Assembly: GCA_963677745.1 (NCBI GenBank) | Contig: OY782391.1 | Location: 320,001-384,000 of the forward strand | DNA: 64,000 bases | Origin: Candidatus Altimarinota bacterium | Lineage (GTDB): Bacteria; Patescibacteriota; Gracilibacteria; UBA1369 | Direction: 5' to 3' | Shown: positions 6,153 through 16,700 of the stretch, piece after piece | Position numbering within the stretch: position 1 is the stretch's first letter | Layout of the letters: each line of letters opens with the position of its first letter | Made by a program: the position numbers and the translations under genes | Notes under the pieces: generated by a model | Told to the model about the DNA's origin: nothing | Seen by the model: only the letters and a program-made list of their open reading frames with translations | Databases searched by the model: none

Positions 6153-9100
6153 ATGATTCTCACTACCTCACCGCTGTCGGATCAATCAGAACAGGCGGAA
6201 CAATCAGACCTCCTGAAACCAAACACTACGCCCGATATCCCCGGGTTTACCGATGTTTATTCGCAACAAGCCAGGGAAAAGGCCTGGAAAAACGTCCTGG
6301 AAGTGGCCGGCACACTGACTCCCGGCAAAACCATGGCACTGATGGAAGACCGGTTCGCGCCATATTGCATCCCGCTGATCGGAACTTTCACAGCTGAGGA
6401 TATTGATCAAAAATTACCGGAATTTGCCCATCAAATCCTCCATGAGTTTCAGCATGAGCTGATTTTTTCTCTGCTGGACAACCGGTTGTATCAGTCCCAA
6501 AAAAACGGCTCTTGTTTTGTCTTATGGGCCAAGAACCTGCTGGAAAACACAGCTGTCCCCCCCACACTATACAAGAACTGGAAAGCCGGATTTCCGGATG
6601 ATTTCCAAACCAATCTGGTTATTTTTCTGCAATATCTGGAAGCCAGCCACATCAATTATGACCCCAATTATTTTATCGAAACGGTCAATCAGGTGGACCG
6701 GGATTTAAGTCCATATCTGACCAACCGTCTTCAGGGAGACAGCCTTTATCTAAAAGTCATGTCGGCCGCTGCTCTGCAAAGACAGGAGATAGAAAAAACC
6801 CAGGTGCTTTTTGGCAATAATGCCTGGGTCATGCACCCCTTTACCGATGTGATTTTGGAAATGATTCAGGCAGCCTACCCCGGGCAAAAACTGATGACCG
6901 GACACCCCCAGACCATCCTGGATTATCCGGAAGAAGTCCACCAGGCTTACCTGCGGGACATGGGCAGAATTTTCGACCGACATCCCGAATTGACCCGTCC
7001 CGCTGATATCCCCGTAAATGTGGCAGGTGACTTTGAAGATCCCCTGAGAATCGGCAAACAATATTGGGAAATCCTGGCCTCTACTCCCCTGCCTCCGGAA
7101 ATAATCAATAACCCGTCCACCGCCAAAAAATACATGAACCGTCAGGGATCGATTGAAAAAATCGGCAACAATGTCTTCCATCAGTGGGGAACTACGCTGG
7201 TAAAAAACCTGCCGGACAAACGTGCCGATGGCACCGTTATCAACTATACCAGCGACAAAAACATCAGGTTTTACACCGAATATCAGTCCAGGATGAGACA
7301 GCTTCCGCTGTTCCTGGGCATCGACGTGTTCCTTGATATGTACAGACATTGTACCGGCCTGAAGAAGACCCAGTTTTTCCGCGCTCAAGTAGCCCCGATT
7401 CTGGATTCAGACCCGTCGGGAGTCAGCCTTTACAAATTTTTTAACAATTACAACTGTGATCCGGATTTCCGCCGCGATTTGCTCGGACTCTTGAAACACA
7501 AGGAAAAGTATCTTGACCATTTCATTTCATTGGCCGGAAATGCCCGGATCCCCCGACTGGCTGCCTTTGCCATGAAAGTACTGGCCGATTATTGCGGCTC
7601 CAGCTTTCCCCCTCCAAATTCCGACGGTCTCCTGATACCGGTTGTGGAAAAAACAAATCCACGACTGAAAAATGTAATCAGAAAATTGTTTCCTGATGAA
7701 GAATCCCTTCATGACCAGGTACTGGCCGAAAATTTCATGGTATTCACTTATTTTGTTTACGCCAACAATTTCACCTATAGCCACAACCAGACATCCAACG
7801 GTATAACGAAAAACCCCATTCTCATGTCGAGCAGGGGTGAGGTAACTCCTTATCAGAAAGAACAACTGTATATCCGTCTCTTCACCACCATTCTGAACCG
7901 CAGGGAATTTTTGGATAAATTTATTCTGGAAGAACTGAGAACAAAAGGACTGACCTATCTGGCAGTTGGATTAAAAGAACGCCTGGCCGCCTTACCCGTC
8001 CTGGCCAGACAGAGCGAAGAACATCTGGGAACTATCCGGCTGCGACTGGCTTCTCCCAAAAGAGCCGGACAAGAAACTTTTGAACTTCTAAAAAAGATCG
8101 ACCGGTCCAATCAACCGGATTTCGATAAAAGTGAAAATTTCGTCCGGAACTGTCCTCCTGCTCCCTGCCCCCTGAATTGCGTAATTAGCGTCGACCTGAC
8201 CGGAAACCCCGGTGAAGACTTTTATGTCGTAATCGGCAACACCACTCCGCAAATTATCCCTCCGGTCGACTTTCCAATGCATCTGATCAGACCACGGCTG
8301 GTATCCGACGCAGTACTGCTGGAAAACATCACCCACAATCTGCCCGACGGAGAATCCGACAAAATCCCCGATGAAATAAAGGCAATTATTTACCGGCTTT
8401 TCATCTGTGCCGTCTACACCTACCTGCTGGAAAATCACAGTGATTTATTGGTACCTCCGTCCGACTCCACTCCACCGGCCATCCTGCCCGGAACTCCGGC
8501 CGCAGCCGCATTGCCTGACTCCGCCCAAGCAATTCCTCCCGTCCCGGACCGGCGGCGTCCCAAAAAGAAAGACGACAAGGACACGCTGCTGACTGTGGAT
8601 ATGCGTGATGACCAACAGGAGGAAAGAAGCCGTATGTCCACGCGCATCAACGCCAGACTTACCGAAAACCAGGAGAATCTGCTTAAATTCCTAAACGGCC
8701 AACTGCCTGCGGATGAACTCCCCAATCTGGTTGTACACCGCCAGCTGCCCGGCATGGAGGAAAAACAGTTCGTTTATCAAAGAATCAAACCGGAAGATCT
8801 GCCCGCCATGCTGGCCGCAGGAACACTGTTCGGACCTGATATTCATATTCTGGTTGGAACGCCCTACCTCTGCGCCCAGGGTTATCTGGGACAAAAAAAC
8901 CTGCCGCTCCGGCAAAGTATTTACCGCATCTCCCGCGACACCAGAACCCTCAATGCCGAAATGGCCTATTATGACTATTACCAAAAATCCGGACTGCCCG
9001 ATCTGGGACCACTACACAGCGTGGATGCCGTCTTGCGCCTGCGTGAAAACGCCGACCCCGGACAAAACGGCGACTGCGCCTCGATTAAATACAGCGATCA

Positions 9101-10217
9101 TCTGGGCAAAGAGCATGAAGTAGTGGGAAAAGTTTCCCGGCCCGATCCGGCCATCCATATCATGCAGAGACTGCAGAACGACGGCTATATGGATCATTGG
9201 ATACAATCACAAAAACGTGTACTGGAACAGGAAATACTCGCCGCCCAAAACGACACCCGCCTGACCGACGAACAGAAAAAGCTGGAAACCACCATTAGAA
9301 CAAAAGAGCTGGAAAGTCTGGAAGAACTTAAATTAAAGCTGCTCTACAACACCCGTCTGTTGCCCGACAAAATCCGCGGGGAAACAGGCTCCTCCATCCA
9401 GATCGGTTTGGGTTGGGTGGAAACAGATATTTCTTTTAACCAGGGAACTTATATCAGTATGGAAGAATTTCTGATCGCCCATGCCGACCAGTTCCCGCTG
9501 CTGACAGACTTTATTAAAATTCCTGCGGAATGTCCCGAGCAGAAACGGCCAAAAACCACACTGGAACTGGAAAAACAGGATATTATCCGTGAAATTCATT
9601 CTTTGGCCGAGCTGGTTACCTATCAGAAATACAAGGATATCTTCGGGCAGAAAACCGACGCCGCCAATGGCAACGGCAATGGTAATGGGAATGGAAACGG
9701 GAACGGACAAGCGGTAAAAAATTCGGCCGACAGCCGTCAGAAAACGATGCTGGCCTGCGAGGCCCATTTGTCGGCGCTCATCACACTTTACAAAGACCTC
9801 CAGCCGGTCATGGACCGGGTGCTGGTCGGCTCGAAAAGTTTTGATCTGCTGACCATCCGCGGCGACCAGGCTTTCCTGTGGGAGGTAAAAAGCATTAATA
9901 CCGGCGACCGCAACGAAGATAAACAATTGCGCGCCGCCCTCGGCCAGCTGCCTGAATATCAGTTCTTCGGCATCGAAAACCGTCCGGAAATAAATTCGGG
10001 AATCACCACCGTCACCAAGGCCGTTTTACTTAGTGAAAAACCCCAAATGCTCAGTAATGGCAGCAACCAGACCGCCCAAAATTACCTGAAGTTTCTGGAA
10101 AACCAGCTGGGCATATTCACTTTTTGGCTGGAGGAAGGCCGCCTAAACGGATCACCCGCGGCCATGGAAAAGCTGAAAAATTTTCTACTGCCTGACCAAT
10201 CCGCCCCACCCGAATGA
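6153..10217 (+). CDS. Large hypothetical protein with C-terminal PD-(D/E)XK endonuclease-like domain
   Basis: 1354-aa ORF; FDLL...LWEVKS...QLRAALGQLPEY near the C terminus, after an (NG)7 linker. Confidence 0.8.
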   Translation: MILTTSPLSDQSEQAEQSDLLKPNTTPDIPGFTDVYSQQAREKAWKNVLEVAGTLTPGKTMALMEDRFAPYCIPLIGTFTAEDIDQKLPEFAHQILHEFQHELIFSLLDNRLYQSQKNGSCFVLWAKNLLENTAVPPTLYKNWKAGFPDDFQTNLVIFLQYLEASHINYDPNYFIETVNQVDRDLSPYLTNRLQGDSLYLKVMSAAALQRQEIEKTQVLFGNNAWVMHPFTDVILEMIQAAYPGQKLMTGHPQTILDYPEEVHQAYLRDMGRIFDRHPELTRPADIPVNVAGDFEDPLRIGKQYWEILASTPLPPEIINNPSTAKKYMNRQGSIEKIGNNVFHQWGTTLVKNLPDKRADGTVINYTSDKNIRFYTEYQSRMRQLPLFLGIDVFLDMYRHCTGLKKTQFFRAQVAPILDSDPSGVSLYKFFNNYNCDPDFRRDLLGLLKHKEKYLDHFISLAGNARIPRLAAFAMKVLADYCGSSFPPPNSDGLLIPVVEKTNPRLKNVIRKLFPDEESLHDQVLAENFMVFTYFVYANNFTYSHNQTSNGITKNPILMSSRGEVTPYQKEQLYIRLFTTILNRREFLDKFILEELRTKGLTYLAVGLKERLAALPVLARQSEEHLGTIRLRLASPKRAGQETFELLKKIDRSNQPDFDKSENFVRNCPPAPCPLNCVISVDLTGNPGEDFYVVIGNTTPQIIPPVDFPMHLIRPRLVSDAVLLENITHNLPDGESDKIPDEIKAIIYRLFICAVYTYLLENHSDLLVPPSDSTPPAILPGTPAAAALPDSAQAIPPVPDRRRPKKKDDKDTLLTVDMRDDQQEERSRMSTRINARLTENQENLLKFLNGQLPADELPNLVVHRQLPGMEEKQFVYQRIKPEDLPAMLAAGTLFGPDIHILVGTPYLCAQGYLGQKNLPLRQSIYRISRDTRTLNAEMAYYDYYQKSGLPDLGPLHSVDAVLRLRENADPGQNGDCASIKYSDHLGKEHEVVGKVSRPDPAIHIMQRLQNDGYMDHWIQSQKRVLEQEILAAQNDTRLTDEQKKLETTIRTKELESLEELKLKLLYNTRLLPDKIRGETGSSIQIGLGWVETDISFNQGTYISMEEFLIAHADQFPLLTDFIKIPAECPEQKRPKTTLELEKQDIIREIHSLAELVTYQKYKDIFGQKTDAANGNGNGNGNGNGNGQAVKNSADSRQKTMLACEAHLSALITLYKDLQPVMDRVLVGSKSFDLLTIRGDQAFLWEVKSINTGDRNEDKQLRAALGQLPEYQFFGIENRPEINSGITTVTKAVLLSEKPQMLSNGSNQTAQNYLKFLENQLGIFTFWLEEGRLNGSPAAMEKLKNFLLPDQSAPPE

Positions 10218-10301: not shown

Positions 10302-13300
10302 CTAACTTGTTTCACCAACCACAATCATCTTGGCCGATTCGGCGCGTGTGACATTATTGGCCGGACCGCAGACACCGGTCGGATTGCCGCTGGCATCTTT
10401 ATATCCGCCGACAATTCCATGGGCTAAAGCAAAATTGAAATACGGAGCATACCATTCCGACTGAATCACATCGGTACAAGCGTTGTTGGCAGCCGCAGCA
10501 GCAACCTGTTCAGGGGTAACCCAGGTCAGCAAAATCATTTTGAGTGCCTCACTGCGAGTGGCATTGGCGGTAAGTTTGAAAGTACCATCGGTATAACCTC
10601 TGACAATTCCAAGCTCCTTGGCCTTGGCAATATAAGCCGCAGCCCAATGACCGGCAGGGACATCGCGGTATGGAGACACCGTAACCGCAGGAAGTACTCC
10701 ATATTTTACTTTCATCAACAAAACAATCAGTTCGGCACGCGTAATCCGATTTTCGGGTTTAAACTGATGAGTCGCATTGCCGCTGGCATCGGTATATCCA
10801 TCCACACCGGCCTGATGCAGTTCATTGATAAATGTCTCCGCCCAGTGACCGGCAACATCGTTAAAGAAAGCTGTTTCACCGGTAGTTTCCGTAGTCGTGT
10901 CGGTGGCAGTAGTGTCATTAACATTGTTTCCGGTGGTACCGGTACAGTTGGTACCGCTGCAGGACGCACGACCAAAGGCCGCCGACCCACCACCTCCGCC
11001 TCCACCTCCGCCGCCTCCGCCGGCACTGACAACCGTAAAGGCGAAGCTGTTGGTACCTGATAAAGCATTACCGGCCAAATCCTTGGCGGTGGTCAAAGTA
11101 ATAGTCACGGCAGATCCGGCCGTCCAGGCGACCGCATGGGTCAGCGTTACCGTCTTATTGGCATTGGACCATACCGGAGCAGCATAAACCTTACCGGTAC
11201 TGTCGGTGAAAGCAAAAGTAGCCGTATCGATAGCTTCACTGAAATTGATAACTACCGTTCCCGCCTGAGGCACACTCACGGCCCCATTGGCCGGTGCGCT
11301 GGAGGACATTGTGGGAGGAGTATTGTCTGCATCATATTCACTGAAACCGGTAACATCATACGTAAGAGTCTGAGCCAGGGCACTCCAAACGAAATTGGAA
11401 ACCGTACCATGCCCGCCGCTCAGCACATAGGAATCCAGCGGACCGGCAGTATTGGGAATATTTTCAATCACAGCACCCAGATCATCTTTCACCGTTAAAG
11501 CGGGTTGCACTGCCGTAGGCATACGCATCATCAGAGTGGCTCCATAGTCCAGAGCGTAAAGAGCCGAGCTGTCCACTCTCATCACAGTATTGGAAATTGT
11601 CACGTTGGTACCGAAAGCCGACAGCGCATTTACCGTCCCCATATCAGTCAGATTGACCGGATCGGTAAAGGTAAGTCTGCCATAATCATTCACACCATCA
11701 TTGGCATTGAAAGATAGTCCGACAATATTGGTGAAATCGATAATATCGGAAAAATCAGTCGTAAAAGCATTATTCAGATAGGTAAACGCCGGATCAAATT
11801 TCGGATTCACGTTGAATACCCCGACAAATGTGTCTGAGAGATTGCTTTCAGTAATATTCCCCGCATCATCAATTAACTGGAAATTCATCACGTAACCAGT
11901 CTGCTGGGAAGGCCAAGCTGAAAGATTGGCCAGGTCAAAATCAGAAGTTGAGGAAGTGGGGCTACCCACCGTCATAGGATCAGCTTTGGCAGGATTGGCA
12001 AAATCCCCGGTATTGCAAAGACTGTTCGGGGAATCATCTTCCATGGAAGTAAAACAGAGATTTACAGCCGCCAGAGGATTACCATCAACCTCAACGATAT
12101 TATTCACCTGCACTCTCACATGATCCTCTGCCGGACTGTCATAGTAATACCAAAGGTTGGTAGGCCAAGTGGTTGCCGCACCGGCCTGGGTGAGTGCCAC
12201 GACCGGAGTAAGCACAGTAAAGAGAGGTTTAATAGTATCAATCGTATAGTTGTTGGTGCCGGCGGTTGTCGTTACATTTCCCGCATCGTCAGTGACAGTC
12301 ACGGTAACGTTGTTGTTAATATCGTCCTGTGAGGTTAAAGCCAGAAAACTCGTATAAGTACTGGCACCGGGAAACGATCCGTTGCCTGCCGCAGGACTTC
12401 CCGAACCATCAAGATCCACAGTATTAAAATCGACCGAAGCAATATCATCATTGGCACCACTCAGATAATCAGCGCAACCTGCTGTGTTATCCCAGGTTGG
12501 CGTGGCAAAATCGCCATTGTTGAAAGCTCCACCCGTTCCATGCGCACCCGCAACAGAAATACAAGCAGTCGTCACAACCGGAGCCTGCGTATCAATATTA
12601 AATACGGCCGGAACACTCGGACCTTCCACGTTACCCGGTACATCCGTAGCCAAAGAACTTTCGACAGTAACCCCCACACTCTCCTCGTCAACATCGGTCA
12701 AATCAAAAGTTTCATACCAGATATTGGGACTGTTCCATAAACCATTGGTAATACCATCAGCATTGGACACAAAAGCCCCTACATTTCCGGCAAAAGTAAT
12801 CGTAGGAGTTGAAAGCGGATCCATCGGTTCGCTATAAATAACCGTAGCATCCTGTAACAAAGTTGTGTCATTGAGCAATACCGATCCACGATAGACATTT
12901 GCGATAGGAGCAGCCTCGTCATCAACAGTTGCAGCCACCCAATCCTGCGGCTGATTACTATTTACATCAATTACATTACCCAAATTAGTAAAACTCAAAG
13001 TGGGCGATACCGCACCACCGGTTTTGCCCGCATCGGCAGACACATCCAATCGCACATCAGACCCGACTGCCACACCAGCATAAGCATTGGTTATATTGAC
13101 ACTGCCCGGATTGGGAAAAGACCATTCCCCTCCGCCAATACCCGACATGTTTACAGGCTCGGTAAAACTGACATCAACGCGGTCTACCGTACCGTCGGAA
13201 GTTATATCTTTATAGTCATAATCAATCGGCACCGGATTCGCATAATCAAACATACCGGTAATGGTAAAATCGGCGGAATTATTAGGATGAGCACTGGAAT

Positions 13301-14807
13301 CAACAATGTTATTGCCCGCGGTAAAACTCAAGTCCGGTTCTGTTCCGGCAATACCTACTCCGGTAATATCCGCATTGGCAGTAGCATCCAAAGACACTTG
13401 ATCCTGATTTGTACAGCTACTACAACCGGTAACATCAAAACCTGTCAGATCATTTGGTGTCGCCGCCCAGTCAGTATCCTGATAGACATATGTCACTCGT
13501 TCGGAAAAAACCACCCCGACATAATCAACCTGTCCATCATTATCAGTATCAACATAATGTGCCCCAAGCATAATCGGAAGAGCAAAATCCGTAGCGGCAG
13601 TGGCCCCCCCCTCAATGGCAATGCGATTTCCTGCTGCATCTCCTAAACTCCCGTTGGCAGTAATCTGTACCGTGGGTGTAGCAGCAGAGTCACAACCACT
13701 ATTATTGACACGAACACATGAACCGGGATTTTCCAATAATTGAACCAGAAATTGATCATCGTTGGCCACTCCGGCGGTATCATAACCGGTAACCGTATAG
13801 CCCGGCACAGTTACTGTCAGCGTGGAAAAATTATCATTTAAATTTTGCGAGGCAAACATTCTGATCGCATCAATTTTACCATTGGCATCCTGATCTTCCG
13901 TATGCCGGGCCACAATCGTCGGGGTGATTGTATCAACGGCAAGCCCTTCTCCACCACCCAAATTATCATTAACCTGATCATTACCATGAACATCGCGGGC
14001 ACCAATAATACTATTTGCTAAAAGAGTTACTTCCTCATTGACATCGGCTACTGTAAAAAACGCCCGATAGGTGTTTTGGTCCATCCAATATGATGAACCT
14101 GTATTAGTCAGAGTACCTGAAGTAATGATGTTTGGAGTAAAACCAAAGACTGGAGGTAGCGGGCTCATATTATCCTCACTACCGGTAATCGGATTCGTAA
14201 AATCAACCGTGATATGAAATGTATCAACACCGACCAGTGCATCATTAATTAAAGTAGTACTCAAAGCAGACGGCACCACATCTGACACCGGAGCGGCTGT
14301 ATCCACCAATTCCGCCATATTGTTACTGAACCCAGACGCTGCGGCCGGATCATCGGAATCCGAAGCCGTTATCATAACTTTAGAAGACGGACTTCCGCCA
14401 GCCACATCAATTCCGCTGGCACCGGCATCGGCAATCATAAAAGTTGTTTCCCAAAGATCATTGACACCATTATTACAGGTATCCACCGCCAAAGCCTGCA
14501 TGAATGAACCTCCATAAGTTGTTAAATCAACAGTTACCGTTGGAACTGCAGTAGTACAATCACCATTTGCCACATTATCGGTATTGCTGATGTCCGCATC
14601 GATTTCTATGGTATCACCGATATTGGCAAAGGTATTTCCATCGGCATCAGTTAACAAAGTTAAGGAAACACTATTGACAGTGATACTCCCCGGTGCCGCC
14701 CTGGCCACCTCAATTCCGGTTGCATTTAAAACCAGACTGGCTGCCAGAACAATCAGTGAAAAAGGCACTAACGGTGTTCGCCGAAAGTGTCGGTGAAATA
14801 TTTTCAT
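10302..14807 (-). CDS. Large secreted S-layer-homology surface protein with Ig-like (Big) repeats
   Basis: Signal peptide; Thr/Asp/Val-rich beta repeats with D-x-D-x-N/D-G-x-I/V-D motifs; Big_5-like PTMSSSAPANGA..FSEAID; poly-Gly linker; three SLH repeats (FNDVAGHWA..ITRAE, YRDVPAGHWA..ATRSE, CTDV..WY..VTRAE). Confidence 0.9.
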   Translation of the reverse strand: MKIFHRHFRRTPLVPFSLIVLAASLVLNATGIEVARAAPGSITVNSVSLTLLTDADGNTFANIGDTIEIDADISNTDNVANGDCTTAVPTVTVDLTTYGGSFMQALAVDTCNNGVNDLWETTFMIADAGASGIDVAGGSPSSKVMITASDSDDPAAASGFSNNMAELVDTAAPVSDVVPSALSTTLINDALVGVDTFHITVDFTNPITGSEDNMSPLPPVFGFTPNIITSGTLTNTGSSYWMDQNTYRAFFTVADVNEEVTLLANSIIGARDVHGNDQVNDNLGGGEGLAVDTITPTIVARHTEDQDANGKIDAIRMFASQNLNDNFSTLTVTVPGYTVTGYDTAGVANDDQFLVQLLENPGSCVRVNNSGCDSAATPTVQITANGSLGDAAGNRIAIEGGATAATDFALPIMLGAHYVDTDNDGQVDYVGVVFSERVTYVYQDTDWAATPNDLTGFDVTGCSSCTNQDQVSLDATANADITGVGIAGTEPDLSFTAGNNIVDSSAHPNNSADFTITGMFDYANPVPIDYDYKDITSDGTVDRVDVSFTEPVNMSGIGGGEWSFPNPGSVNITNAYAGVAVGSDVRLDVSADAGKTGGAVSPTLSFTNLGNVIDVNSNQPQDWVAATVDDEAAPIANVYRGSVLLNDTTLLQDATVIYSEPMDPLSTPTITFAGNVGAFVSNADGITNGLWNSPNIWYETFDLTDVDEESVGVTVESSLATDVPGNVEGPSVPAVFNIDTQAPVVTTACISVAGAHGTGGAFNNGDFATPTWDNTAGCADYLSGANDDIASVDFNTVDLDGSGSPAAGNGSFPGASTYTSFLALTSQDDINNNVTVTVTDDAGNVTTTAGTNNYTIDTIKPLFTVLTPVVALTQAGAATTWPTNLWYYYDSPAEDHVRVQVNNIVEVDGNPLAAVNLCFTSMEDDSPNSLCNTGDFANPAKADPMTVGSPTSSTSDFDLANLSAWPSQQTGYVMNFQLIDDAGNITESNLSDTFVGVFNVNPKFDPAFTYLNNAFTTDFSDIIDFTNIVGLSFNANDGVNDYGRLTFTDPVNLTDMGTVNALSAFGTNVTISNTVMRVDSSALYALDYGATLMMRMPTAVQPALTVKDDLGAVIENIPNTAGPLDSYVLSGGHGTVSNFVWSALAQTLTYDVTGFSEYDADNTPPTMSSSAPANGAVSVPQAGTVVINFSEAIDTATFAFTDSTGKVYAAPVWSNANKTVTLTHAVAWTAGSAVTITLTTAKDLAGNALSGTNSFAFTVVSAGGGGGGGGGGGGSAAFGRASCSGTNCTGTTGNNVNDTTATDTTTETTGETAFFNDVAGHWAETFINELHQAGVDGYTDASGNATHQFKPENRITRAELIVLLMKVKYGVLPAVTVSPYRDVPAGHWAAAYIAKAKELGIVRGYTDGTFKLTANATRSEALKMILLTWVTPEQVAAAAANNACTDVIQSEWYAPYFNFALAHGIVGGYKDASGNPTGVCGPANNVTRAESAKMIVVGETS

Positions 14808-14926
14808 AATTAAAAATTAAACTTTACTGCAAAAGAAAATACATCTTTATTACAAAATGTTCTTTAAAAATGCTTGCCCAATTTCCGTTTTAAAGCGTGC
14901 CTCCGATTAATCCGGTCCACCACAAT

Positions 14927-14959
14927 AAAAAGAAGCCATCCTTGCGGATGGCTTCTTTT
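14927..14959. terminator. Intrinsic terminator ending the large minus-strand RNA
   Basis: AAAAGAAGCCATCC-TTGC-GGATGGCTTCTTTT perfect 14-bp stem (GCAA loop on the minus strand). Confidence 0.9.
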
Positions 14960-15516
14960 GTACCTAACTAAAACCTTACTCTGTCCCCTAAGATTTTTTA
15001 AGATTGTTCACAAAGTTGAATACAAGATAAGTTATATCTGGCTTTACAAGTGTATTTCCCTTGAAGCGACCCGACTTGCGTCAAGCGACCCAAGCTTAAT
15101 TGGTGATATTCAGACACGAACCTTGGTAAAGACTTTCTTCACCAGTATTTCATATAGATGATCTTACCTTGAACAGCGTTACCACTATTCTCGTTCAATC
15201 ACAGAATGTTTTCTTCCTTTCCTGTCTTTCGATAAGAAGGATCGTTAACACCCTCATAGAACCAACCAGTTCAAACACATTTCTTTTTTATTCATCCTTC
15301 GGGACTCCCCGAGAACGACATAAAAAAGGAACAATCCCTATTGAGCGTCCCTCATAACCCCTTTCGAAGTTACTTAAGCGAGCAAGACCGAAGTCTTACT
15401 TTAACAACAGGTTTTCTTAGAGAACCTACCCACTTTCGTGAGGAGGAAAGTTTATAGGAAGGGCCGAAAAACCATTTTATGGTCTCTCAACTCTTCCTAA
15501 AAGCTTTTTTTTGTGA
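14960..15516 (-). ncRNA. Large (~560 nt) highly structured non-coding RNA, family unassigned (ROOL/GOLLD/OLE-type candidate)
   Basis: No minus-strand ORF of 60 aa or more; many hairpins with GAAA, GCAA, GUAA and UUCG tetraloops and G-U pairs on the minus strand; flanked by promoter, boxA and terminator. Confidence 0.75.
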
Positions 15517-15527
15517 TGTCAAAGAAC
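15517..15527 (-). promoter_or_regulatory. boxA antitermination-like element
   Basis: GTTCTTTGACA on the minus strand ~20-30 nt after the predicted TSS; resembles rrn boxA. Confidence 0.6.
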
Positions 15528-15552
15528 GGTTTCTCTTTTCAGTCTTCATATC

Positions 15553-15581
15553 ATTATACTACCGACAAACTAATATTGCAA
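15553..15581 (-). promoter_or_regulatory. Near-consensus sigma70 promoter for the large RNA
   Basis: TTGCAA-17 nt-TATAAT on the minus strand. Confidence 0.8.
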
Positions 15582-15667
15582 GAATAATCTTTTATCGTCT
15601 GCCTACTTACGATAAGATTTTGAACGAATGGTTTCTGTTATAAGATAGCAGTCGTAATCACCACCGT

Positions 15668-16465
15668 ATGAATAAACATTTCCGACTTAAATCCATAGTG
15701 GGCCGCGGTGCCCAGAATATAGTCGGCAGACTGGAAGATGACGACCGGCTGATCAAATTCCCCCACTGGACCGGTGCCAGATGGGACAAAAGCAGCGCGA
15801 AAAGCATCCTCGGCGATCTGGGAATTCATCTCCGCCGGAGCAATCCCATTCCGGAAACCAGCGTTGTGACCGAGCCTACCATTGATTTCGGCAGAAAAAT
15901 CATCAAACCGCCCTTTGCCGTGCTGGCCGAGGAAATCAGGGGAAAAGCACTGCGTGAAGCCGATCTGGTTAATCCGGACATCAAAGACCAGTTCAGTACC
16001 CTCATCAAAACCTCTCTGGCCATCCGGGAAGAAACCGGCTCCGGCGTGGACTTCATGGGCTTTGAATCAATCGGACATCTTTTTGAATATTTCCTGGGCA
16101 AAATTTCCGCTGACCAATTGGCAGCCTGTAATATTTTGATCGATTCCCGGGGACAAATTAAATTGATCGACACCAGTCTGCTTTCACCGGCCCGCGCCCC
16201 CTTCGGAGTGGGCTGGGCCATCGATTTCCTGATCGACGTACAGCACGGTTTGATGGCTGAAGTCCTGCAGGACCAAGAGCTGCTGGGTAAATGCAGCACA
16301 GACAACCACTCCCGGCTGATGACAAAACTGGCGGAAAAAGTTTATCAGTTGTCGCGCAGCCAAGATCCAGAAAAATTACCGGATCTCAGATCACCCCGTC
16401 ACCAAAATTTATTAAATGCCAACCATGCCCTCCCCCTTCACGGCCTACATCCTGGAGTGCAGTGA
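15668..16465 (+). CDS. Atypical protein-kinase-like fold protein
   Basis: IVGRGAQNIV Gly-loop, LIKFP lysine, NILID...IKLIDT. Confidence 0.6.
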   Translation: MNKHFRLKSIVGRGAQNIVGRLEDDDRLIKFPHWTGARWDKSSAKSILGDLGIHLRRSNPIPETSVVTEPTIDFGRKIIKPPFAVLAEEIRGKALREADLVNPDIKDQFSTLIKTSLAIREETGSGVDFMGFESIGHLFEYFLGKISADQLAACNILIDSRGQIKLIDTSLLSPARAPFGVGWAIDFLIDVQHGLMAEVLQDQELLGKCSTDNHSRLMTKLAEKVYQLSRSQDPEKLPDLRSPRHQNLLNANHALPLHGLHPGVQ

Positions 16466-16700
16466 TCAAACTCTCTATATTGGTTCCACCAACGACCTGC
16501 CCAAAAGACTGCATGCCCACAATCACCTCAAATCGGGGGCCAGATATACCAAAGCCCGGCGTCCGGTCCGGCTTATTTATCAGGAAAATTTCGAAACTTT
16601 CAGCGAGGCCAAAAAACGCGAGGCCGTTTTAAAAAGACTTTCCCGCAAAGAAAAACTTCTGCTAATCGCTGCCGGATTGCCCACTACAGAACGGATTTGA
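16416..16700 (+). CDS. GIY-YIG nuclease family protein (UPF0213/YhbQ-like)
   Basis: [44 protein letters not shown]..LK. Confidence 0.9.
   Translation: [94 protein letters not shown]

Follow-up and report, generated by a model that had tools for sequence, protein, structure and literature searches.

A new family of large structured non-coding RNAs in bacteria of the Candidate Phyla Radiation

We found that the minus strand of window positions 14927-15589 carries a gene that stands alone and encodes a structured, non-coding RNA some 620 nt in length. The window is the whole 64,000-nt stretch that was analysed, namely positions 320,001 to 384,000 of contig OY782391.1 (Candidatus Altimarinota bacterium, assembly GCA_963677745.1), and all positions are those of the window unless given as genome positions. 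The host genome (G000) is one contig of 1,335,835 bases and is 97.9% complete. An earlier note, made by a model from the letters of this DNA, had proposed a new large non-coding RNA at this place, and the proposal is supported because the region matches no Rfam family, full-length relatives are present in 18 genomes, 17 helices covary and contigs from RNA libraries fall on the RNA.

The minus-strand transcript folds at -211 kcal/mol, better than its dinucleotide-shuffled controls (z = -12.4 against 20 shuffles), and the plus strand of the same region reaches z = -6.45 against dinucleotide shuffles. We aligned 20 rows from 18 genomes, representing 19 distinct copies; two of the rows do not differ where they overlap, one genome contributes a pair of copies, and a 77-nt fragment at a contig end in genome G007 as well as eight metagenome contigs were left out. 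The RNAalifold consensus of the 20 rows contains 140 pairs in 17 helices, with helix 1 (H1) and the terminator included. Standard pairs occupy 93.5% of 2784 cells, compared with 40.5-48.7% when the 3' partners are slid by 1-3 columns, changes on both sides are seen in 93 of the 140 pairs compared with 29-42 in the slid controls, and the covariation score is 0.489 compared with 0.096-0.131, a large margin, although a structure predicted from the same alignment has some advantage over slid controls. Not one of 500 column shuffles matched the observed value on any of the five measures. Furthermore, none of the 17 helices has fewer than two pairs that change on both sides; in H1, where 95.8% of cells are paired, 10 of the 18 pairs do so, and in the terminator helix all nine consensus pairs. 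These findings show that purifying selection acts on the 17-helix fold, the core of which four nested long-range helices close.

Upon examining the consensus, we observe that the stretch from 15502 to 14974 is nearly all helical. H2, H4, H6 and H8 are nested and together close the body (Table 1), within which lie H3, H5 (whose hairpins have UUCG and GAAA caps), H7, H9-H15 and H16, the two H5 hairpins being seen in the 10-row fold only. The hairpin caps inside the closing helices are GAAA, UUCG, GUAA, GCAA and a conserved GAAAGUC loop, and H16 has a GCAA or UUCG cap with GGUCGC words on its flanks. The eight hairpins that the earlier note had listed (15455-15499, 15429-15443, 15355-15372, 15221-15236, 15381-15400, 15281-15331, 15172-15189 and 15069-15086) all recur in the consensus structures, and the pairing that it drew between 15443-15453 and 14971-14981 is helix 2, which has covariation support. 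A second pairing, between 15510-15516 and 15008-15014, fared worse, with only 3-12 of 18-20 sequences pairing per position. The pseudoknot proposed from the two is unsupported because helix 2 is nested in the consensus, and the other pairing is not conserved; a scan of the alignment for additional covarying helices gave only noise from U- and A-runs, and no pseudoknot was accepted. The same note had read the G-U pairs as specific to the minus strand, which agrees with unvarying G-U pairs in the alignment, such as 571-590 (20 of 20 rows) and 449-494 (19 of 20 rows), that make sense on the minus strand only. Conserved letters make up 100 of 261 paired columns and 58 of 275 unpaired columns, the conserved unpaired junction words being UUAAAG, UCCUUUUU, ACGAU and UCAAG..AAAG, and GGA-rich words and two GGUCGC words are likewise conserved in the alignment.

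A small open reading frame (ORF) that explains the conservation, making this a protein-coding or dual-function region, is extremely improbable. The longest sense ORF in the RNA region has 39 aa, in line with the earlier reading that no long ORF is present, and none is common to all homologues. What speaks for coding is a recurrent sense ORF of 25-33 aa, which ends at one alignment column in about 8 of 20 rows, and on the antisense strand 7 of 20 rows have an ORF of 62-108 aa. Against this, no ORF on either strand is shared by all 20 rows, the indels of the alignment do not come in threes, and substitutions keep base pairs, including the G-U pairs that are meaningful on the minus strand only.

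The gene is delimited by its own signals, which had been picked out from the letters beforehand and which the comparison bears out. The promoter TTGCAA-17-TATAAT at 15581-15553 (-) is found by a promoter scan with 10 of 12 matches, and a -35/-10 pair stands at the equivalent place in all 11 homologues examined; from its position, transcription is predicted to start at about 15547-15545. The boxA-like word that follows is conserved in place in all 20 rows, with the variants GTTCTTTGAAA, GATCTTTGAAA, GTTCATTGAAA and GATCTTTAAAA. At the other end, the terminator hairpin with its U tract is present in 20 of 20 aligned rows; a simple terminator scan did not list the terminator at 14959-14927.

Table 1. 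Parts of the RNA gene and its long-range closing helices, in window positions
Feature	Position	Strand	Description
Promoter	15553..15589	-	Extended -35 word GATTATTCTTGCAA (15589-15576), 17-nt spacer, -10 TATAAT (15558-15553)
boxA-like word GTTCTTTGACA	15517..15527	-	In the 5' leader, about 20-30 nt into the predicted transcript
A-rich single-stranded linker	15503..15516	-	Between boxA and helix 1; variable length, 20/20 rows; unpaired in consensus
Helix 1 (H1)	15451..15502	-	Long 52-nt hairpin with variable tip; UAGGAAGAG.../...CCCUUCCUA
Closed multi-domain body	14974..15450	-	About 480 nt, helices 2 to 16; RNAalifold, 20 rows
Apparently unpaired 3' tail UUUUAGUUAGGUAC	14960..14973	-	Before the terminator; conserved in alignment (GUUUUAG..GG), unpaired in consensus
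Intrinsic terminator (helix 17)	14927..14959	-	14-bp stem, GCAA loop, U tract; sequence and minimum-free-energy fold
Long-range closing helix H2	15450-15443 with 14981-14974	-	Consensus
Long-range closing helix H4	15425-15415 with 14993-14983	-	Consensus
Long-range closing helix H6	15336-15329 with 15009-15002	-	Consensus
Long-range closing helix H8	15279-15274 with 15056-15051	-	Consensus

Next, we investigated the RNA in public sequencing data. Part of the stretch occurs in 21 public runs from 9 studies, and 13 of these runs are RNA libraries. We compared four metatranscriptomes from four studies, chosen because they contain the stretch, with window positions 14000-16500, and each yielded a contig on the body (14963-15450) at 98-100% identity: 488 nt on 14963-15450 with 9 differences and word depth 128 (X6), 481 nt on 15001-15450 with 6 differences and word depth 26 (X7), 324 nt on 14998-15316 with 2 differences and word depth 31 (X11), and 269 nt on 14998-15255 with 0 differences and word depth 5 (X12). 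These four libraries have no contig on 14000-14923 or 15512-16500, an absence that carries no evidential weight. More divergent RNA-library contigs map as well, probably from relatives, and two contigs skip parts of the RNA, with different letters where those parts would be. Contigs end at 15450 and near 14963-15001, which is where the two large hairpins lie, and assembly probably broke at these points. Past 15450, the X7 contig runs into 31 letters that look like a conserved stretch of 23S ribosomal RNA (rRNA), and the contig with this extension is probably chimeric. The RNA is thus present in RNA libraries of several habitats, the contigs showing neither ends, strand nor level.

We also compared the region with known RNA families. 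Rfam 15 lists only a transfer RNA (tRNA) in the whole window at the gathering score and leaves the RNA region without a family; on 1101 bases with permissive filters and E<=10, we obtained chance-level hits only, mostly to terminator-like ends of unrelated small RNAs. Within the region no match at E<=10 was given by the models of ROOL, OLE and GOLLD (RF03087, RF01071 and RF01998, respectively), RNase P RNA, transfer-messenger RNA (tmRNA), signal recognition particle (SRP) RNA, 6S RNA, introns or rRNA, nor by those of small ribozymes and group I and group II introns. The earlier note, too, had recognised no hallmarks of RNase P, tmRNA or introns, and the gene's own promoter and terminator and its intergenic location also speak against membership of group I or II introns. 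The familiar RNAs are encoded elsewhere in the genome: RNase P RNA at genome positions 405247-405740, tmRNA at 701797-702237, a 6S-like RNA at 602254-602414 (41 bits, under the cut-off), 16S rRNA at 144335-145832 (-), and 23S rRNA at about 136.8-139.6 kb (-), where it was located with a short motif and by reading the sequence. As a side observation, the RNase P RNA (494 nt) and tmRNA (441 nt) exceed their Rfam models (367 and 374 positions), which suggests lineage-specific insertions.

SRP RNA was found neither in G000 nor in any of 61 genomes of the order, and G000 yielded no Ffh M domain and no SRP54-type GTPase, which was likewise absent from all 151 class genomes searched; that many bacteria of the Candidate Phyla Radiation (CPR) have lost two SRP subunits is already described in PMC8080830. 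We rejected the idea that the new RNA is a hidden SRP RNA because it occurs in 16 of 151 order genomes only and thus does not track SRP loss.

To describe the distribution of the RNA, we combined several searches. BLAST of the RNA against relatives finds it in 10 of 61 genomes, G000 included, at 68-85% identity, with two copies in genome G005. A covariance model of the 5' domain (R1; 177 positions, built from 11 sequences) finds it in 8 of 36 genomes of its own family and in 16 of 151 genomes of an order sample, with 5 of 22 in family f1, 7 of 21 in f17 and 3 of 11 in f19; it is not found in 96 genomes of 16 other families of the order or in 135 genomes of other orders in a class sample, and in a phylum sample of 151 genomes it is found in G000 only. 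These searches scored 18-75 of several hundred first-look candidates per genome, and "not found" therefore means not found with the R1 model, since only part of the candidates was scored. Nine divergent copies were added after the covariance-model search, all of which span leader to terminator, and the full-length relatives amount to 19 distinct copies in 18 genomes of three families in one CPR order. Additionally, a strict pattern scan of genome contigs gave 12 loci, of which 11 were confirmed by nhmmer, and in metagenomes it gave 8 contigs, all confirmed by R1 at 110-175 bits. The remaining genome-contig locus, in a metagenome-assembled genome labelled "Bacteriovoracaceae" (L029), is a chance match that both nhmmer and the covariance model fail to confirm. 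The records of the pattern loci are titled Candidatus Peribacteria, Peregrinibacteria, Gracilibacteria, Altimarinota and Patescibacteria group, which bears out the earlier description of a CPR-like genome, and one record is labelled "Bacteroidia", its sequence being identical to that of another record. In the genomes searched, the family is confined to one CPR order, Peribacteria/Peregrinibacteria by record titles. In the literature, we found no such RNA described for Peribacteria or Peregrinibacteria, and supplementary motif lists might contain one.

The distribution is patchy within the order. Genome G020, which is one contig, 100% complete and of the same genus as the RNA-bearing G033, has no copy by R1, and its site beside a shared oxidoreductase gene leaves no room for the RNA; compared with the RNA-bearing locus, only this downstream gene is shared and a different gene abuts it, an arrangement from which loss and gain cannot be told apart. 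We infer that the RNA is accessory rather than essential, as no copy is seen in complete genomes of closely related bacteria. In the RNA tree, f17 falls into two groups, with genus g41 joining f19 and genus g68 joining f1 (support 100/99 in either case); outside f17 the tree follows the family labels, with f19 as one clade and the f1 rows together, and the two G005 copies are each other's nearest relatives. Patchiness, two copies in one genome and the departure of the tree from the labels in f17 would all suit an RNA of a mobile element, either carried by phages, as many copies of ROOL and GOLLD are, or serving as guide to an IscB or TnpB nuclease. We nevertheless consider this origin highly improbable, since no integrase, phage, transposon or nuclease gene is found among the neighbours examined and the tree follows family labels outside f17. 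Furthermore, in viral contigs, where a loosened and too degenerate pattern gave at least 120 matches, none of the 80 listed matches was confirmed by covariance model.

The genes around the RNA also bear on a cis-acting role. The RNA lies 120 nt upstream of, and on the same strand as, a 1501-aa SLH/Big_5 surface-protein gene (10302-14807, -), and it could therefore be a leader or attenuator of that gene; long, stable leaders are frequent in S-layer genes. However, the RNA stops at a strong terminator, and in 10 other loci unrelated genes lie downstream (among them ATP synthase a chain, an oxidoreductase, an HD protein and MarR), some on the opposite strand. This leader reading, which we hold to be very unlikely, counts as refuted because no downstream gene is shared. 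The flanking genes vary by locus and include a trehalose-phosphate-synthase-like GT20 gene, an oxidoreductase, ATP synthase a chain, an HD protein, RecR, STAS, a DEAD helicase, NUDIX, MarR and a methyltransferase; we found no gene family conserved in the flanks beyond close relatives, and these neighbours are ordinary housekeeping genes. The other neighbours in the window are proteins of no family. A second giant gene beside the RNA (6153-10217, +; 1354 aa) has no Pfam family.

Elsewhere in the window we observed two 72-nt tRNA-like elements, at 712-783 and 1832-1903 (+), with a third similar match at genome positions 1106861-1106931 (-). Both elements in the window show an acceptor stem and a CCAC tail, their T arm GGGGGUUCGACUCCCC is perfect, and the two match only the tRNA-like ends of the tmRNA model, at 30 and 26 bits and under the cut-off; ARAGORN does not call them as tRNAs. 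A NERD-domain gene (928-1665) lies between them, a TATAAT-like word follows each copy, and the extra outer stem that encloses each differs yet pairs (GCTGGCC/GGCCAGC in one, GCTGGTAAC/GTTACCAGC in the other). These elements could represent a small structured RNA or mark the termini of a mobile element.

Next, we examined the link to rRNA transcription that the 5' end suggests. The BoxA consensus GYTCTTTAANA comes from gamma-proteobacteria (PMC5725501), and GTTCTTTGACA fits 10 of its 11 positions; the BoxA target search described in that source left non-coding RNAs out. The call of a boxA is strengthened by the 16S leaders of two relatives, G033 and G021, which carry the perfect-consensus word GTTCTTTAACA, one position different from the word of the RNA, and the 16S leader of G051 has GCCCTTTAACA. 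NusB (PF01029) is encoded in all 21 genomes searched, G000 included, and the Rho RNA-binding domain (PF07497) was found in none of the 21 (G000 and 20 relatives), so that a boxA/Nus function would be Rho-independent here. The seven other genomic copies of the boxA word that we examined have no promoter-like sequence upstream and look coding by eye. Upstream, the pattern GATT[AT]TTCTTG[AC][AC] has three sites on both strands of the 1.34-Mb genome, namely the 23S promoter, the 16S promoter and this RNA; the count of three is by construction, because the pattern was written after these sites had been seen, and the search shows in addition that a fourth site is lacking and that the three agree in nine further letters upstream of the -35 hexamer. 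Since in G000 this extended -35 word is common only to the two rRNA promoters and the RNA, it suggests co-regulation with ribosome synthesis. As for the rRNA genes themselves, 16S and 23S are unlinked, each with its own near-identical promoter, and the interval between them contains two tRNAs headed by another promoter-like sequence, together with at least two stretches that look protein-coding.

Descriptions of the antitermination complex credit it with helping rRNA to fold and the leader-trailer helix to form (PMC10250234, PMC8632103), and the new RNA may be made in a similar way. A boxA about 20-30 nt into the transcript would recruit NusB and NusE, and RNA polymerase would then be modified as on rRNA operons. 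As no Rho domain was found, the likely gain would not be protection from Rho; instead, elongation would be fast and free of pauses, and co-transcriptional folding would be chaperoned. The tethered 5' region would stay near the exit channel until the 3' strands of H8, H6, H4 and H2 emerge about 220-470 nt later, which could help these long-range helices to close, and the rRNA-type promoter word would keep transcription in step with ribosome synthesis. By analogy with OLE, ROOL and GOLLD, there is about an even chance that the product is a trans-acting, abundant and stable RNA that serves as the scaffold of a ribonucleoprotein or of an RNA-only assembly.

The same promoter word and boxA would couple the level of the RNA to growth, as would be expected of a regulatory decoy or sponge like 6S RNA or CsrB, in which an abundant RNA made with rRNA titrates a protein such as Nus factors, RNA polymerase, a ribosomal protein or an RNA-binding regulator. 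The conserved GGA-rich and GGUCGC words would also suit a sponge, and the RNA is accessory and sometimes duplicated. We consider a sponge unlikely, since about 530 nt in 17 helices, with four nested closing helices, far exceed the needs of known sponges, the conserved letters are more often paired and do not fall in repeated loop motifs, and a 6S-like RNA is already present elsewhere in the genome. In size, nested long-range helices and conserved unpaired junction words the RNA resembles the general build of large ribozymes, and it could process itself or act on another substrate with the conserved junction nucleotides as an active site. This too appears unlikely, however: the RNase P, intron and small ribozyme models do not match, the gene has its own promoter and terminator and no flanking exons, and there is no sign of cleavage or ligation junctions, the two skipping contigs carrying replacement letters. 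Another reading, to which we give a similarly small chance, would make it a fourth, large and stable RNA of the "ribosome programme" in some Peribacteria, with an rRNA-type promoter and boxA/Nus, which may act on or with the ribosome or its assembly as an accessory ribosome-associated or biogenesis RNA, in a lineage where neither SRP nor Rho was detected. If this were true, no structured RNA led by a boxA would have preceded it outside the ribosome, and the CPR would gain its first family of large ornate RNAs.

Several points weigh against a boxA-led scaffold RNA. No partner protein, ligand or target was found, partner proteins having been sought by a three-genome subtraction with two candidates profiled, and the scaffold reading thus draws on analogy and on ruling out its rivals. 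The subtraction set G000 and the RNA-bearing G033 against G020, which lacks the RNA, covering the whole of G033 and 80% of G020; it left 105 candidates, all G000 proteins with a homologue in G033 and none in the compared part of G020, most of them in a part of G033 that seemingly corresponds to the uncompared part of G020. At the 5' end, the boxA-like word has an A-to-G change at position 8 that may bear on Nus binding, the genome's own 16S leader word GGTCATTAACA is less canonical and a weaker word precedes 23S, and the -35 pattern is post hoc and partly shared, being present in G021 and absent from G033, G051 and others. The RNA libraries were preselected for containing the stretch, their contigs are silent on strand, level and 5' and 3' ends, and they stop at the two big hairpins, leaving helix 1 and boxA uncovered. 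With 18-75 candidates scored per genome, divergent copies may have been missed and patchiness overstated. Finally, the split of f17 in the RNA tree is not explained by simple vertical descent and could reflect old paralogy or transfer within the order.

The two candidates that were profiled as partners were both rejected. A 134-aa protein of no family occurs in 64 of 151 order genomes, G020 included, and does not track the RNA, and a MiaB-like radical-SAM/TRAM enzyme occurs in 121 of 151 and is missing from six RNA-bearing genomes (E<=1e-60).

Large, intricately folded bacterial RNAs are rare and are either central machines (rRNA, RNase P, tmRNA, introns) or puzzles (OLE, ROOL, GOLLD, raiA). 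The present family adds the CPR as a new host group for large ornate RNAs, and with its alignment and covariation-supported secondary structure the RNA is ready for cryo-electron microscopy. Through its boxA and rRNA-like promoter word, an RNA other than rRNA is linked to the Nus machinery in genomes where no Rho was found, and the chaperone role of this machinery becomes testable outside rRNA.

When compared with known systems, the gene resembles an rRNA transcription unit in its consensus promoter, its boxA word, a long untranslated RNA with pairing between 5' and 3' parts that lie hundreds of bases apart, and a genome that encodes NusB; it differs in that no small- or large-subunit rRNA model matches, the rRNA genes lie elsewhere, and the RNA is absent from most relatives. 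To our knowledge, a boxA with an rRNA-like promoter word has not been described for ROOL. The earlier note had called the RNA ROOL-like, which stands for size and ornateness, as it does for the stand-alone gene, the many helices and the unknown function, and does not stand for family membership, since the ROOL, GOLLD and OLE models give no match; the new RNA also belongs to another phylum and is chromosomal, with no phage genes nearby. ROOL itself is described as a stand-alone, ornate RNA of about 580 nt with many helices and unknown function (PMC5737381, PMC12286853) that forms a cage (PMC12286853). GOLLD is likewise a large ornate bacterial RNA of unknown function, whereas the new RNA is shorter, has no match to its model and shows no phage context that we found. 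OLE has a conserved neighbourhood with genes of partner proteins (oapA). Here, the flanks share no gene family beyond close relatives, OapA itself not having been searched for. OLE and the new RNA are alike in being highly structured and about 600 nt long, and they differ in model match and in hosts, which are CPR bacteria and not extremophilic Firmicutes; OLE is described as abundant, with protein partners at the membrane (PMC3413148). The raiA motif RNA is also a stand-alone structured RNA of unknown function, its model does not match, and it occurs in other taxa. Its size is about one third of that of the new RNA. It is described as abundant in PMC12968392. As a descriptive class that implies no homology, large ornate bacterial non-coding RNAs exceed 400 nt, are non-coding, have covarying helices and stand alone, and the RNA has all of these properties. 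Overall, it is a new family within the large ornate bacterial RNAs, distinguished by its CPR hosts, its boxA and its rRNA-type promoter.

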